Shown: one piece after another, positions 59,826-63,714 of the stretch
How the letters are laid out: every line of letters starts with the position of its first letter
Numbering within the stretch: the stretch's first letter is position 1
From: an uncultured Cytophagales bacterium
GTDB lineage: Bacteria; Bacteroidota; Bacteroidia; Cytophagales; JAAEPT01
Length of the DNA: 64,000 nt
Reading direction: 5' to 3'
Assembly (NCBI GenBank): GCA_963815495.1
Contig: CAWFGW010000007.1
Coordinates: 129,531 to 193,530 of the forward strand
Notes under the pieces: model-generated
Databases searched by the model: none
Seen by the model: only the letters and a program-made list of their open reading frames with translations
What the model was told of the DNA's origin: nothing
Position numbers and translations under genes: made by a program

Positions 59826-59858
59826 AATCCTCGAGGATTTTAAAACACTCGGAGGATT
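59826..59858. repeat. REP-like palindrome A (imperfect)
   Basis: AATCCTCGAGGATTTTAAAACACTCGGAGGATT. It lies 17 nt upstream of the cas1 ATG. Confidence 0.8.
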
Positions 59859-59875
59859 GTCAACTAGTTAAAGCT

Positions 59876-60769
59876 ATGATAAAACGAACGCTACTCTTTG
59901 GAAACCCTGCTTACCTCAGCACAAAAAACGAACAATTAGTTGTTAAGTATCCTGATGAAGCGCTTGATACTAAAACAGTAGCCATTGAAGACATTGGCGT
60001 ATTGTTATTAGAAGATCCTCAAATTACTATCACCACGGGGTTGATTGACAAACTCACCGCCAACCAAACAGCCATTATCACCTGCGACCGTAACCACATG
60101 CCAACAGGCTTGTTGATGCCGCTTAGCGGACATAGTGAACAACAAGAACGGTTTAGGGCACAACTAAGCGCCAGCGAACCGTTGAGAAAAAACCTATGGC
60201 AACAGACGGTACAGTCAAAAATTAAAAACCAAGCGTTACACCTCAAAGAACGAGGCACGGCTATCGACAATATGCTGCATTGGGTAAAAAGCGTGACCTC
60301 AGGCGATACCCAAAACCATGAAGCACGGGCGGCTGCTTATTACTGGCAACAGTTGTTTGATTTACCGCACTTCAACCGACATGCAGGAGGCGAAGCGCCC
60401 AACAACTTACTGAACTATGGTTACGCTATCTTAAGAGCTGTTTGCTCGCGAGCATTAGTGAGCAGTGGTTTACTTCCCCTACTCGGCATTCATCACAAAA
60501 ATAAATACAACGCCTACTGCCTGGCCGATGACATCATGGAACCTTACCGACCTTATGTTGACCTGGTGGTGTGCCACATCGTGGACAACTTGGGCGATTA
60601 CGAAACATTAACGACTGACTTAAAAAAAGAACTGTTACAAATACCGGTGTTGGATGTGATGATTGACGGCAAAAAAAGTCCGTTGATGGTGGCGATGAGT
60701 CGCACCACCAGTTCGCTGTACGATTGTTTTGCTGGCAATAGTCGGAAAATCAGCTATCCAGAGTTTTAG
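59876..60769 (+). CDS. cas1: Cas1 integrase (type II)
   Basis: 297 aa with NLLNYGYAILR...GIHH...ADDIMEPYRP motifs. Confidence 0.95.
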   Translation: MIKRTLLFGNPAYLSTKNEQLVVKYPDEALDTKTVAIEDIGVLLLEDPQITITTGLIDKLTANQTAIITCDRNHMPTGLLMPLSGHSEQQERFRAQLSASEPLRKNLWQQTVQSKIKNQALHLKERGTAIDNMLHWVKSVTSGDTQNHEARAAAYYWQQLFDLPHFNRHAGGEAPNNLLNYGYAILRAVCSRALVSSGLLPLLGIHHKNKYNAYCLADDIMEPYRPYVDLVVCHIVDNLGDYETLTTDLKKELLQIPVLDVMIDGKKSPLMVAMSRTTSSLYDCFAGNSRKISYPEF

Positions 60770-60774
60770 ACTAC

Positions 60775-60807
60775 AATCCTCGGAGGTTTTGAAAACCTCC
60801 GAGGATT
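60775..60807. repeat. REP-like palindrome B (perfect 16-bp arms)
   Basis: AATCCTCGGAGGTTTT-G-AAAACCTCCGAGGATT, located between the cas1 stop and the cas2 start. Confidence 0.9.
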
Positions 60808-60833
60808 AAAACGATTACAAACACTAACAAGTG

Positions 60834-61184
60834 ATGAGCCTCGAAAACCATTTCTCGCGCCTAAACCAATACCGTAGTATGTGGGTACTTGTATTCTTTG
60901 ACTTGCCAACCGAAACAAAAAAAGAACGAAAGGTCGCTTCTAAATTCAGAAAGTCACTTTTGGATGATGGCTTTAGCATGTTTCAATTTTCAATTTATAT
61001 GCGATTTTCTGCTAGTAGGGAAAATGCAGAAGTACATATTCAGCGTATCAAACGTTTATTACCTGAACATGGTAAAGTGGGCATTATGCACATTACCGAT
61101 AAACAATTTGGAATGATGGAGCTGTTTCATGGGGTAAAAAAAGTAGAAACCGAAAAACCGGCTCAACAGCTCGAACTATTTTGA
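60834..61184 (+). CDS. cas2: Cas2 (type II-C)
   Basis: [18 protein letters not shown]...FQFSIYMRF ferredoxin-like pattern. ATG 60834 preferred over GTG 60831. Confidence 0.9.
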
Positions 61185-61255
61185 AAAAGCGGTTTGTTTT
61201 TTAATTCCAATTAATAAAGTAATTCACAGAATACCAACCAATTAGCTTGGGGTAT

Positions 61256-63048
61256 CCTGTGAATTATCACTTAAGATAAGTGTTTGAAAGCAATTCACAA
61301 CCATGGTTAGTGAGAAGGTTCAATTCCTTCTCCTGTGAATTATCACTTAAGATAAGTGTTTGAAAGCAATTCACAACGAACTGACATAAAACGCAAACGT
61401 AAATTATCCTGTGAATTATCACTTAAGATAAGTGTTTGAAAGCAATTCACAACTATTAGTTCCGCATCCTGTTTTGATACCTCCCTGTGAATTATCACTT
61501 AAGATAAGTGTTTGAAAGCAATTCACAACTGATTGCCACATCTTCAACTAGCCCATAGGCCTGTGAATTATCACTTAAGATAAGTGTTTGAAAGCAATTC
61601 ACAACTTGTAAGTTGGTGTTCTTTCGTTTTCTAAACCTGTGAATTATCACTTAAGATAAGTGTTTGAAAGCAATTCACAACATCAGACAAGAGATACCTT
61701 TTTTTATTCTACCTGTGAATTATCACTTAAGATAAGTGTTTGAAAGCAATTCACAACCTTCAAGCCTTTCAATTCTTCTTGATTCCCCCTGTGAATTATC
61801 ACTTAAGATAAGTGTTTGAAAGCAATTCACAACGGAAAAGGTAAATGGTTAAAATTATACAGACCTGTGAATTATCACTTAAGATAAGTGTTTGAAAGCA
61901 ATTCACAACGGCTCACCAAGAGCTTCACCAGCCCATTCGCCTGTGAATTATCACTTAAGATAAGTGTTTGAAAGCAATTCACAACACCTTTAGTTGCACC
62001 CACGTAGTACAAGCCCCTGTGAATTATCACTTAAGATAAGTGTTTGAAAGCAATTCACAACAGTAAAATAGGTGTGCAGATAATCGCTATTCCTGTGAAT
62101 TATCACTTAAGATAAGTGTTTGAAAGCAATTCACAACAGATTTTGCCTTTTCTATTTCTAAAAGCAACCTGTGAATTATCACTTAAGATAAGTTTTTGAA
62201 AGCAATTCACAACTACCTCATAAGCTGGTAAATAAAGCCCTTTCCTGTGAATTATCACTTAAGATAAGTGTTTGAAAGCAATTCACAACGGGTTTTAGAT
62301 AGTTCAAACAATCGTATATCCTGTGAATTATCACTTAAGATAAGTGTTTGAAAGCAATTCACAACTTCAATGGAGTAAAGGGAACATCTCAGGGGCCTGT
62401 GAATTATCACTTAAGATAAGTGTTTGAAAGCAATTCACAACGAGCCTCTTCCAATTCAGAAGATTTGATTTCCTGTGAATTATCACTTAAGATAAGTGTT
62501 TGAAAGCAATTCACAACCTAGTTCGTGAGGTAGTTTAAAACTATTCTCCTGTGAATTATCACTTAAGATAAGTGTTTGAAAGCAATTCACAACTAAGGAG
62601 TTAGGGTTTCATTATGCTTGTTTCCTGTGAATTATCACTTAAGATAAGTGTTTGAAAGCAATTCACAACTACTTCATCTACAAACTTCAACTCCTTAGCC
62701 CTGTGAATTATCACTTAAGATAAGTGTTTGAAAGCAATTCACAACTGGAACAGCAACCGTAACTATTGATGGAAGCCTGTGAATTATCACTTAAGATAAG
62801 TGTTTGAAAGCAATTCACAACGATAGATATCACATTGATAGGGGTAATTTACCTGTGAATTATCACTTAAGATAAGTGTTTGAAAGCAATTCACAACCCG
62901 TGATAATACCATCAATCCTTGAACGGCCTGTGAATTATCACTTAAGATAAGTGTTTGAAAGCAATTCACAACTAGGAGAAGAAACAAAACGATTGTTATT
63001 CTCCTGTGAATTATCACTTAAGATAAGTGTTTGAAAGCAATTCACAAC
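61256..63048 (-). CRISPR. CRISPR array: 24 repeats of 46 bp and 23 spacers (22 x 30 bp, one 29 bp), transcribed on the minus strand
   Basis: + strand repeat CCTGTGAATTATCACTTAAGATAAGTGTTTGAAAGCAATTCACAAC. The crRNA-sense repeat is GTTGTGAATTGCTTTCAAACACTTATCTTAAGTGATAATTCACAGG. Period 76 bp. Orientation is fixed by complementarity to the terminator-bearing tracrRNA. Confidence 0.97.
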
Positions 63049-63071
63049 TTTTAACCCTCGGAGGGTTAAAA
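63049..63071. repeat. REP-like palindrome C
   Basis: TTTTAACCCTC-G-GAGGGTTAAAA. It starts at the base immediately after the last CRISPR repeat. Confidence 0.85.
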
Positions 63072-63079
63072 ATTAAGGT

Positions 63080-63682
63080 TTAAAACTCAAATAAACCCTC
63101 ATTAATTGTGATATTGTTATGAAAGTCCAACAATGCTTGTTTGTTACCAAACCACTCCTGGAGGTACATTCGATTGATCTTCGTGGGTTTTTCGAGGCAA
63201 TAAGCATGGATAGAAGAATGTTTCCAGTCGAGTAAGTTGCAACAAAACCCGTGTTTTACTGGGTTTAAGTGTATGTAAGCTATAAGTCTGGTAAAGTAAG
63301 TCTCATCCTGTACCGGTTTGCGTTTAAACCGATGCATAAAAAGACTGCCTTTTCTATCATACATCTCATTATAGGCTTTTGAGTAAGCATTAAAAAAGTT
63401 ACTAAATTGTTTTGATACTAGACCTCCGAGGTTTTCAAAACCTCGGAGGTCTTTACCTTTTAAATATTCAAACAACACGTCCTCACTCCTTATCCTCACC
63501 ATTAGATGAAAATGATTAGGCAACAAACAATACGCATAAGTATCGGCTAGAGGATAGATGTAGTCAGCATATTTACGAAGAAAATAACGATAGTTTTCAT
63601 CGTTTCTAAATAGATTTTCGCTACCATTGGCATGATTGTAAATGTGGAAAACAGTGTCTGGTAAAAGTGGTTCTAAATACAT
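63080..63682 (-). CDS. REP-associated tyrosine transposase (RAYT) / IS200-like Y1 HUH transposase
   Basis: HUH motif PNHFHLMV and catalytic-Tyr motif AYIHLNPVKHG, in a 200-aa protein. Confidence 0.8.
   Translation of the reverse strand: MYLEPLLPDTVFHIYNHANGSENLFRNDENYRYFLRKYADYIYPLADTYAYCLLPNHFHLMVRIRSEDVLFEYLKGKDLRGFENLGGLVSKQFSNFFNAYSKAYNEMYDRKGSLFMHRFKRKPVQDETYFTRLIAYIHLNPVKHGFCCNLLDWKHSSIHAYCLEKPTKINRMYLQEWFGNKQALLDFHNNITINEGLFEF
63420..63452. repeat. REP-like palindrome D, in frame inside the RAYT ORF
   Basis: AGACCTCCGAGGTTTT-C-AAAACCTCGGAGGTCT, which encodes KDLRGFENLGGL. Confidence 0.9.
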
Positions 63683-63697
63683 AGCTGGTTTATTTTA

Positions 63698-63714
63698 TTA
63701 ACCCTCAGAGGGTG
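63698..63714. repeat. REP-like palindrome E
   Basis: TTAACCCTC-A-GAGGGTG. It lies 16 bp upstream of the RAYT ATG. Confidence 0.7.

Follow-up and report, generated by a model that had tools for sequence, protein, structure and literature searches.

What are a family of short palindromes and a transposase-like gene doing in a CRISPR-cas locus? The question is raised by a 64-kb stretch of DNA from an uncultured Cytophagales bacterium (the window, with coordinates counted from its first letter), the last 9 kb of which is a type II-C CRISPR-cas locus. An earlier note on this DNA had reported five related palindromes, A to E, between and beside the cas genes, and had likened them and a neighboring gene to repetitive extragenic palindromic (REP) sequences and a REP-associated tyrosine transposase (RAYT). 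The best explanation of what we found, to which we give a probability of about 80%, is that the palindromes are REP repeats of a RAYT lineage that is habitually resident in cas operons and acts locally. The locus would hold two RAYT genes, one intact beyond the array, bracketed by C and E and carrying D in frame, and one decayed between cas9 and cas1, ended by A (Table 1).

All five palindromes were present at the positions given by the earlier note. B, which had been described as a perfect palindrome in the cas1-cas2 gap, and D both proved to be perfect 16+1+16 palindromes, with single-stranded DNA (ssDNA) folding energies of -16.4 and -17.1 kcal/mol, respectively (z about -8), while the arms of A are separated by an indel (-6.4 kcal/mol, z -2.4), C forms a stem of 10-11 bp (-7.8 kcal/mol, z -3.7), and E forms one of 5 bp (z -1.6). 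The core CCTCGGAGG occurs five times in the window versus 0.05 times expected from shuffles, with none of 100 shuffles reaching five, and all of its copies lie within 60778-63449; moreover, CCTCNGAGG has zero copies in the remaining 60 kb of the window, in agreement with the clustering, and with the lack of a clear copy elsewhere in the window, that had been claimed. B and A stand 2.3-3.3 kb from the intact RAYT gene. The palindrome patterns as written were A[GA]ACCTCSGAGGTTTTSAAAACCTCSGAGGT[CT]T for the long type and, in addition, AACCCTCNGAGGGTT, and the dimer form of A, B, and D reads A[G/A]A-CCTCSGAGG-TTTT-S-AAAA-CCTCSGAGG-T[C/T]T, in which each arm (ACC-N5-GGT) is a small palindrome, so that the basic unit is ~15 nt. 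Since the arms are themselves palindromic, C and E, which share the motif CCCTCNGAGGG (only two occurrences in the window), read as monomers, and A, B, and D read as dimers. The long and short types distinguished in the earlier note were thus both recovered, but, judging from their sequences, the short type (C, E) looks like the monomer of the unit that is doubled in the long type (A, B, D). No Rfam family matches the palindromes.

The gene that C and E bracket is, by its predicted fold and its motifs, a RAYT, that is, an HUH-Y1 nuclease. The HUH motif of this 200-amino-acid (aa) open reading frame (ORF), N56-H57-F58-H59, lies on a beta strand, and H57, H59, Y136, and W153 are conserved in homologs. 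PDB entry 4er8 (Escherichia coli TnpA-REP) was matched by sequence around the catalytic Tyr, where Y136-IHLNP aligns with YIYINP, and an AlphaFold (AF2) model of the protein, built from 28 homologs with a predicted local distance difference test (pLDDT) score of 90.8, has as its best PDB match in Foldseek 4er8_A, which is TnpA-REP bound to a REP hairpin (E = 2.9e-9, template modeling [TM] score 0.61/0.73), the TnpA proteins of IS200 and IS608 being far weaker matches. A family search returned 3289 matches, the named members of which belong to Cytophagales, other Bacteroidota, and Balneolaceae. Because the same core is found inside and around the RAYT gene in the window, we regard the palindromes as REP-type hairpins that are cognate to it. 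Both the bracketing of a transposase gene of 200 aa by C and E and the REP/RAYT architecture claimed for it were therefore borne out, by motifs, by fold with 4er8_A on top, and by the bracketing cognate hairpins; the statement that this architecture is mainly proteobacterial was not, given that it has already been described in Bacteroidetes and Cyanobacteria. An autonomous IS200/IS605 element was considered and rejected, as there are no near-identical copies, the flanking hairpins are one and the same palindrome, and tnpB was found neither in the window ORF list nor in the homolog loci.

The second RAYT came to light in the cas9-cas1 "gap," which is 333 bp long and holds a RAYT remnant of 71 aa that matches residues 9-78 of the intact RAYT (BLASTP E = 9e-11). 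The two copies in the window, one of them decayed, are only 33% identical, whereas the intact one is 74% identical to the RAYT of a type V-A locus. A search with Cas1 only yielded three closest orthologs (94, 89, and 85%), and in all three of these Cas1-anchored loci an intact RAYT of 196-207 aa, with only "faint" PF01797 matches, stands directly upstream of cas1. The window fragment is 46-53% identical to the N termini of the RAYTs in loci L214, L216, and L219 (E down to 5e-21) and has the same start Met. This homology, together with the intact RAYTs at the same position in the orthologs, identifies the fragment as a decayed resident RAYT at its canonical position. The decayed ORF ends immediately before A, and A aligns with D of the intact gene. 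On this alignment, A was the palindrome inside a RAYT ortholog that has since decayed, so that the placement of A between cas9 and cas1 was right in position and wrong in kind: it is not a free intercistronic hairpin but the end of a decayed gene.

The nearest homologs of the intact RAYT, obtained by exact-protein look-up, were located in cas operons in five of six cases. P0002 (74%) lies in the order cas12a-RAYT-cas4-cas1-cas2 in three samples, with a PriA-domain gene of 831 aa as the next gene; P0004 (68%, Raineya orbicola) and P0009 (67%) belong to type I operons, with RAYT directly before cas4; P0016 (62%) lies in the order cas12a-RAYT-cas4-cas1; and P0024 (61%) lies in the order RAYT-cas9-cas1-cas2 on a 4.3-Mb chromosome. 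The sixth, P0022 (64%), is away from cas genes, following mfd amid toxin-antitoxin genes (YoeB, HepT/MNT; L209 8001-8624), and keeps its own palindrome upstream of, inside, and downstream of the gene. In a larger sample of 80 RAYT genes or loci fetched from metagenomes, cas genes adjoin RAYT in 31; among these cas-linked loci, 23 have RAYT upstream of cas1 or cas4 at a distance of at most 300 bp, two (L168 and L198) have it between cas1 and cas2, and 29 have it co-oriented with the cas genes. The CRISPR types concerned are II-C, V-A, and type I. The only match for plasmid carriage was a distant one (40%) on a chromid of Aureibacter, away from cas genes. Orthologous RAYTs have a nonsynonymous divergence (dN) of 0.22-0.30, the synonymous divergence being saturated, so that only dN is reported. 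These observations show that cas operons of three types repeatedly house the RAYT lineage, whose presence is not an accident of this genome, and the juxtaposition of an HUH enzyme and its hairpins with an adaptation module, which the earlier note had found intriguing, is a recurrent one.

The palindromes recur along with the gene. Cas loci with a RAYT have copies of their own palindrome upstream of cas9, at the cas9/RAYT, RAYT/cas1, RAYT/cas4, and cas1/cas2 junctions, and after cas2, with cas1/cas2-junction palindromes like B in L216, L155, and L133. They are alike within one locus and different between loci. Long GC-containing hairpins amount to 0.33/kb inside 18 cas loci versus 0.039/kb in the flanks (51 versus 6, P = 2e-10). 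The spread of hairpins through the cas operon, with A and B at gene junctions, is therefore seen in RAYT-bearing relatives as well, and the question raised in the earlier note, whether other cas9 loci in related genomes lack the palindromes, is answered in the negative for these relatives. In one locus (L212), an intact cas12a gene (3856-7932, 1358 aa) contains four in-frame 33-bp palindromes, at 4500, 4848, 5208, and 7713, which encode SLQGFQTLEVI, PLQGFQTLEEV, NLTGLKDLSGF, and TLQGFLTLEEF and are insertions relative to Cas12a of L201 and L202; a palindrome-coded insert was also looked for in the cas9 of the window, and none was found.

Palindrome D, which the earlier note had pointed out as lying inside the transposase ORF, is indeed there, but it is no oddity. 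In the model, residues 77-88 span a loop and the first part of helix 85-107, which would put D into a surface loop linking the HUH strand to the helix after it. Homologs keep the peptide pattern DL-x-GF-E/Q-N-L-x'-GL with the x/x' pairs R-G, T-S, Q-E, and P-E, and this covariation of x and x' is exactly what a DNA palindrome would dictate. An in-frame palindrome (12-30 bp stem), 8-45 residues after the HUH motif, was found in 48 of the 80 metagenome homologs; its sequence varies by gene, all three reading frames are used, and a Niabella homolog has yet another frame for its palindrome. Across 44 distinct variants, 98.5% of the cells were paired, a figure that is partly by construction because the set had been selected as palindromes, with double compensatory changes at 14 of 15 stem positions and 170 compensatory cells versus 48 in shuffles. 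G-U pairs made up ~6 of 660 paired cells, a scarcity that points to constraint on the palindrome in both DNA strands rather than on RNA alone. Despite the palindrome-based selection of the set, the variety of sequences at one position of the gene is real, and the comparison of variants shows, at the level of sequence, that the internal palindrome has been conserved in its palindromic form. Moreover, in 26 of the 48 homolog loci, the internal palindrome's arms are found again immediately outside the gene; a control comparing cognate with non-cognate arms had a poor design (it counted similar arms across loci and left internal copies unmasked) and is not relied on. An in-frame REP between the HUH and Tyr motifs is a known trait of tnpAREP subclass 2.4, equivalent to RAYT group 4, which occurs in Cyanobacteria, Bacteroidetes, and other phyla (Quentin et al. 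2018, PMC6006769).

One genome per species was also scanned for the exact core of B and D, which gave at least 120 loci (L001-L120). The unit that is conserved measures exactly 33 nt, its flanks being unrelated, and D is the canonical form. Among the matches listed, the 33-mer was found in Chloroflexota, Desulfobacterota, Beggiatoaceae, Cyanobacteria, Bacteroidota, Ignavibacteria, and others, and it is abundant in some genomes, such as a Thiotrichaceae metagenome-assembled genome (MAG) and Desulfonema magnum. A RAYT-like gene is beside the palindrome in seven of the listed loci, in one of them on both sides, while cas genes were near the 33-mer in none of the at least 120 matches listed. The Thiotrichaceae MAG and a Desulfobacterales genome have short tandem arrays of the 33-mer with periods of ~50, 66, and 319 bp, and dozens of copies can occur in a single MAG (for instance, L056 26-152, L106 1301-1527, L045 6670-7639, L022, and L072).

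Taken as REP repeats of a RAYT lineage resident in cas operons, these elements might work as follows. The habitat would be the II-C, V-A, and type I operons of Cytophagales-like Bacteroidota, in which the gene usually has the orientation of the cas genes and stands immediately upstream of cas1 or cas4. By analogy with E. coli TnpA-REP, the enzyme may bind, cut, or rejoin the folded single-stranded palindrome, and it would do so mostly near its own gene. Such local action could seed palindromes and homogenize them within a few kb, and selection may then spare only those copies that lie at intergenic junctions or, in frame, in tolerant loops. As by-products, the hairpins would punctuate the operon and label the junction where effector and adaptation modules are exchanged.

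Several points weigh against this explanation. Binding, cleavage, and local action in this clade are all things that we infer by analogy. The hairpins of the window are without the 5' GTAG foot that E. coli TnpA-REP reads; likewise, no conserved GTAG (GT[AG]G) foot or other tetranucleotide flanks 135 copies of the 33-mer. The protein scores 59 bits against NCBIfam REP_Tyr_transpos (E = 4.6e-16), below the curated cutoff of 80, and has no match in Pfam, including Y1_Tnp. About two-thirds of the 80 metagenome loci show no cas gene, and those with long flanks lie among housekeeping genes. The selection of the covariation set as palindromes counts on the same side.

It is possible, although not probable, that the hairpins act mainly on RNA, in the way that the earlier note had proposed, as intercistronic attenuators or mRNA stabilizers that uncouple the effector from cas1-cas2, and that the RAYT merely maintains them. 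Stable stems of 15-16 bp are found exactly at cistron junctions in many loci, and REPs act in this way in E. coli operons (PMC3733652). However, only D passed a terminator scan, with a T-rich tail on the strand antisense to RAYT, while A, B, C, and E failed; with four of five palindromes lacking the T-tail (the U-tail of a transcript), ordinary or intrinsic terminators are ruled out. The same palindrome is also kept within coding sequence, in RAYT and cas12a, where such a role is unlikely, and the rarity of G-U pairs fits a DNA palindrome better than an RNA helix.

We put forward just as tentatively, as something that may be so but probably is not, that the RAYT clade and its 33-bp palindromes are an unrecognized recurrent part of Bacteroidota II-C, V-A, and type I loci with a CRISPR-related function, either in the handling of ssDNA during spacer acquisition or as a break-and-join junction for effector exchange and movement of cas cassettes.

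A narrower form of the second of these ideas bears on the boundary at which RAYT sits. Between the window and L214, identity is 50% for Cas9, 94% for Cas1, and 97% for Cas2, and between the window and L216, it is 25, 89, and 94%, respectively. Nucleotide homology between the window and L214 sets in at 59857, where A has its right edge, and extends over cas1, cas2, and the repeats. This pattern indicates, as far as sequence comparison goes, exchange of the effector module beside a conserved adaptation module, and RAYT and its palindromes appear to sit at the exchange boundary, which is a correlation only. In situ exchange, or shuffling, of cas9 has been reported in Flavobacteriales II-C loci (PMC12669027). 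RAYT and palindromes could, then, be a recombination junction for swapping or moving cas modules, by hairpin break-and-join or by homology, with the element spreading by riding along. The nearest RAYT relatives are indeed spread over II-C, V-A, and type I loci, and the closest (74%) is in a V-A locus beside a PriA-domain gene equal in length, at 831 aa, to the ORF that flanks the locus in the window. We nevertheless consider this doubtful, as Cas9 outpaces Cas1 in evolution anyway, few locus pairs were compared, none of the breakpoints is placed inside a palindrome at nucleotide resolution, and the array ends of the window and L214 differ in a far-end comparison.

It is unlikely that the RAYT is a working accessory of adaptation that, for example, processes or captures ssDNA for Cas1-Cas2 or Cas4-Cas1-Cas2, with the palindromes being secondary. 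In three CRISPR types, the gene stands immediately upstream of cas1 or cas4 in the same orientation, with gaps of 14-160 bp, which would suit such a role, as would the invariance of the catalytic residues: the HUH histidines, Tyr, and Trp are invariant in 34 of 34 cas-embedded RAYTs, while H59 is Tyr in 2 of 49 others. The decayed copy in the window is accompanied by an intact one, as though each locus retained one working gene, and the distances among RAYTs agree in part with those among Cas1 proteins (Mantel r = 0.38, P = 4e-4). Against this, many family members live in housekeeping neighborhoods, and the position of the gene varies, being upstream of cas9, between cas1 and cas2 (L168 and L198), or beyond the array on the other strand (the window and L124). 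The tight bracketing by its own palindromes is a signature of REP-RAYT systems, not of a recruited enzyme, and the RAYT has no match in PADLOC and no report as an accessory in the literature searched.

A chance one-off insertion of an IS200-like element or, as the earlier note had allowed for, ordinary terminators shared by all orthologous cas operons are very improbable. The intact gene does lie outside the operon on the other strand, and the interval between the array and the downstream helix-turn-helix (HTH) gene in L214 has a HIRAN gene and no second RAYT, but the arrangement is seen again and again, in three CRISPR types and dozens of independent loci, tnpB and identical multicopy elements were not found, T-tails are lacking, the palindromes differ between orthologous loci and match the local RAYT, and, among the matches listed, many phyla have the same 33-mer in contexts other than cas.

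The features of the locus are collected in Table 1. The candidate trans-activating CRISPR RNA (tracrRNA) lies upstream of cas9 and is divergent from it; its anti-repeat matches the GTTGTGAATTGCTTTCAAACAC end of the CRISPR repeat at 20 of 20 positions, and the terminator scan found a terminator-like site on the (-) strand there. With this anti-repeat and terminator upstream of cas9 on the (-) strand, palindrome A is ruled out as the tracrRNA terminator. The orientation of the two also indicates that the CRISPR RNA (crRNA) is transcribed from the (-) strand; the array end at which hairpin C and the intact RAYT lie would then be the leader side, with both on the crRNA strand.

Table 1. Coordinates of the palindromes, RAYT genes, and CRISPR-cas components in the window
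Feature	Position	Strand	Description
Palindrome A	59826-59858		Degenerate internal (once in-frame) REP dimer, ending the decayed RAYT
Palindrome B	60775-60807		Perfect REP dimer, solo copy; in the 61-bp cas1/cas2 junction
Palindrome C	63049-63071		REP monomer-type hairpin; abuts last array repeat; 9 nt past RAYT stop
Palindrome D	63420-63452		Perfect 33-bp REP dimer; in frame within RAYT, residues 77-88 (KDLRGFENLGGL)
Palindrome E	63698-63714		Weak REP monomer-type hairpin; 16 nt 5' of RAYT start codon
Decayed RAYT	59607-59822	+	71 aa, N-terminal half only; HUH lost (PIPLIF for PNHIHF)
Intact RAYT	63080-63682	-	200 aa; HUH H57/H59, catalytic Tyr136 in YIHLNP
tracrRNA candidate	54993-55076	-	Anti-repeat 55074-55055, then stem-loop and T-run terminator 55020-54993
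cas9 (type II-C)	55116-59543	+	1475 aa; Pfam RuvC_III, HNH_4, Cas9-BH
cas1	59876-60769	+	Pfam Cas_Cas1, E = 3e-28; orthologs 94, 89, 85% identical
cas2	60831-61184	+	Pfam CRISPR_Cas2, E = 1e-18
CRISPR array	61256-63048	- (crRNA sense)	24 repeats of 46-47 nt; 24 Rfam CRISPR-DR50 matches

Some further observations concern the surroundings. One array repeat (62168-62213) is unlike the other 23 (G to T, aagtttttgaaagc) and has a different Rfam DR50 score, and in the array of L214 the far-end repeat is interrupted by ~70 nt. An 831-aa helicase-like ORF at 52419-54914 flanks the II-C locus of the window, and the PriA-domain gene of the same length (L201 12727-15222) flanks the V-A locus with the closest RAYT (L201-L203). 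If the two genes, for which only equal length was seen, are orthologous, the site beside priA would host different CRISPR types in relatives. Other neighbors of RAYT-bearing cas loci include a PRiA4_ORF3-domain gene between cas9 and RAYT (L219 1869-2456), WYL/HTH_11 regulators upstream of cas12a (L212 2855-3754) and of a type I operon (L211 1-154), and HIRAN-domain genes adjoining the loci in L201 and L214. Elsewhere in the window, a perfect 22+2+22 palindrome at 14782-14827 (GTAAGGTATATCTAACTTGCGT / ACGCAAGTTAGATATACCTTAC), which has no sequence relation to the REPs, is located in an intergenic region of 750 bp, upstream of a 241-aa gene (13983-14708, - strand), and could be an operator. Two more perfect palindromes, one at 22124-22159 with 17-nt arms (AATCAGGAGGAAGTAAT), resembling a bidirectional terminator between convergent genes, and one at 34271-34310 with AT-rich 20-nt arms, are likewise unrelated to the REP family.

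REP-RAYT systems are described as vertically inherited commensals that are scattered through the genome. The lineage described here has a definable address, the junction of the effector with cas1 or cas4 in three unrelated CRISPR types, which offers a testable context for RAYT biology, while CRISPR biology gains a candidate accessory nuclease or a candidate agent of module shuffling in II-C loci. As the RAYT genes are mostly labeled "hypothetical" and miss Pfam, they are overlooked by annotation pipelines for cas loci. In practical terms, in-frame 33-bp palindromes can inflate Cas12a sequences, and assemblies may be broken by perfect palindromes that lie at cas junctions. Already known are REP-RAYT systems, their occurrence in Bacteroidetes, and the in-frame REP; what is new, within the literature searched, is a RAYT lineage that resides in cas operons of three types. 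That literature, which included surveys of CRISPR-linked genes and the 2025 CRISPR classification, holds no RAYT in cas operons, an absence within the works searched and not a proof, and CRISPR is not mentioned in the classification of tnpAREP genes (Quentin et al. 2018, PMC6006769).

Several known systems invite comparison. A Y1 HUH enzyme beside a Cas9 or Cas12 gene recalls the TnpA of IS200/IS605 elements, and Foldseek also matches the TnpA proteins of IS200 and IS608. TnpB and IscB of IS200/IS605 are the ancestors of Cas12 and Cas9, respectively. Unlike these elements, however, the system described here has no asymmetric left and right ends, multicopy element, or tnpB, and the structural match is much weaker than that to TnpA-REP. 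The RAYT occurs in type I loci too and hence is no relic of an ancestral IS200/IS605 transposon. Closer is E. coli TnpA-REP with its REP/BIME (bacterial interspersed mosaic element) sequences (PDB 4ER8), reportedly the system of Ton-Hoang 2012 and Messing 2012. Shared with it are the HUH motif and C-terminal catalytic Tyr, the best structural match (E = 2.9e-9, TM 0.73), the bracketing of the gene by its own hairpin repeats, and hairpins at intercistronic sites; peculiar to the present system, whose RAYT is only 16% identical to TnpA-REP, are perfect 33-bp palindromes made of two mini-palindromes, one of them in frame in the gene, a low and local copy number within the window, and residence in cas operons.

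There is also a likeness to tnpAREP subclass 2.4 (Quentin et al. 2018; RAYT group 4 of Bertels et al. 2017), which has the same length of ~200 aa, an NH[IFV]H motif (here NHFH), a distribution over Bacteroidetes, Cyanobacteria, and scattered phyla, an in-frame REP between the HUH and Tyr motifs in the variable peripheral beta3-alphaC loop, and a low REP copy number. The REPs of that subclass are GT[AG]G-footed or have a "double foot," whereas the hairpins here are untagged, and it has the motifs WQ and YIxNNP where the RAYT of the window has LF and YIHLNP; some homologs carry YIHNNP or FQ, and the motifs also resemble those of subclasses 2.1 and 2.6. As a small nuclease gene recurrent beside cas1-cas2 in several subtypes, the RAYT also resembles adaptation accessories such as cas4, RT-Cas1, DnaQ-like exonucleases, csn2, and, in II-C loci, PcrIIC1; unlike them, it is a candidate only, and its family also lives outside cas loci and brings its own repeat family. 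In-frame short palindromes tolerated in surface loops are shared with Rickettsia palindromic elements and other REPs in genes (PMC3733652), but the hosts here are the element's own nuclease gene and the neighboring cas effector, and the insert is fixed at 33 bp, or 11 codons. Finally, the Pseudomonas system of RAYTs and REP doublets forming hairpins (REPINs) (Bertels and Rainey 2011, 2017) likewise combines a single-copy domesticated Y1 nuclease with a dimeric inverted REP unit, monomers as remnants, and coevolution of repeat and enzyme; it consists of hundreds of dispersed copies with vertical inheritance, whereas the copies here are few and locally clustered, the nearest relatives of the gene lie in different CRISPR types, and evidence points to movement of the gene itself.

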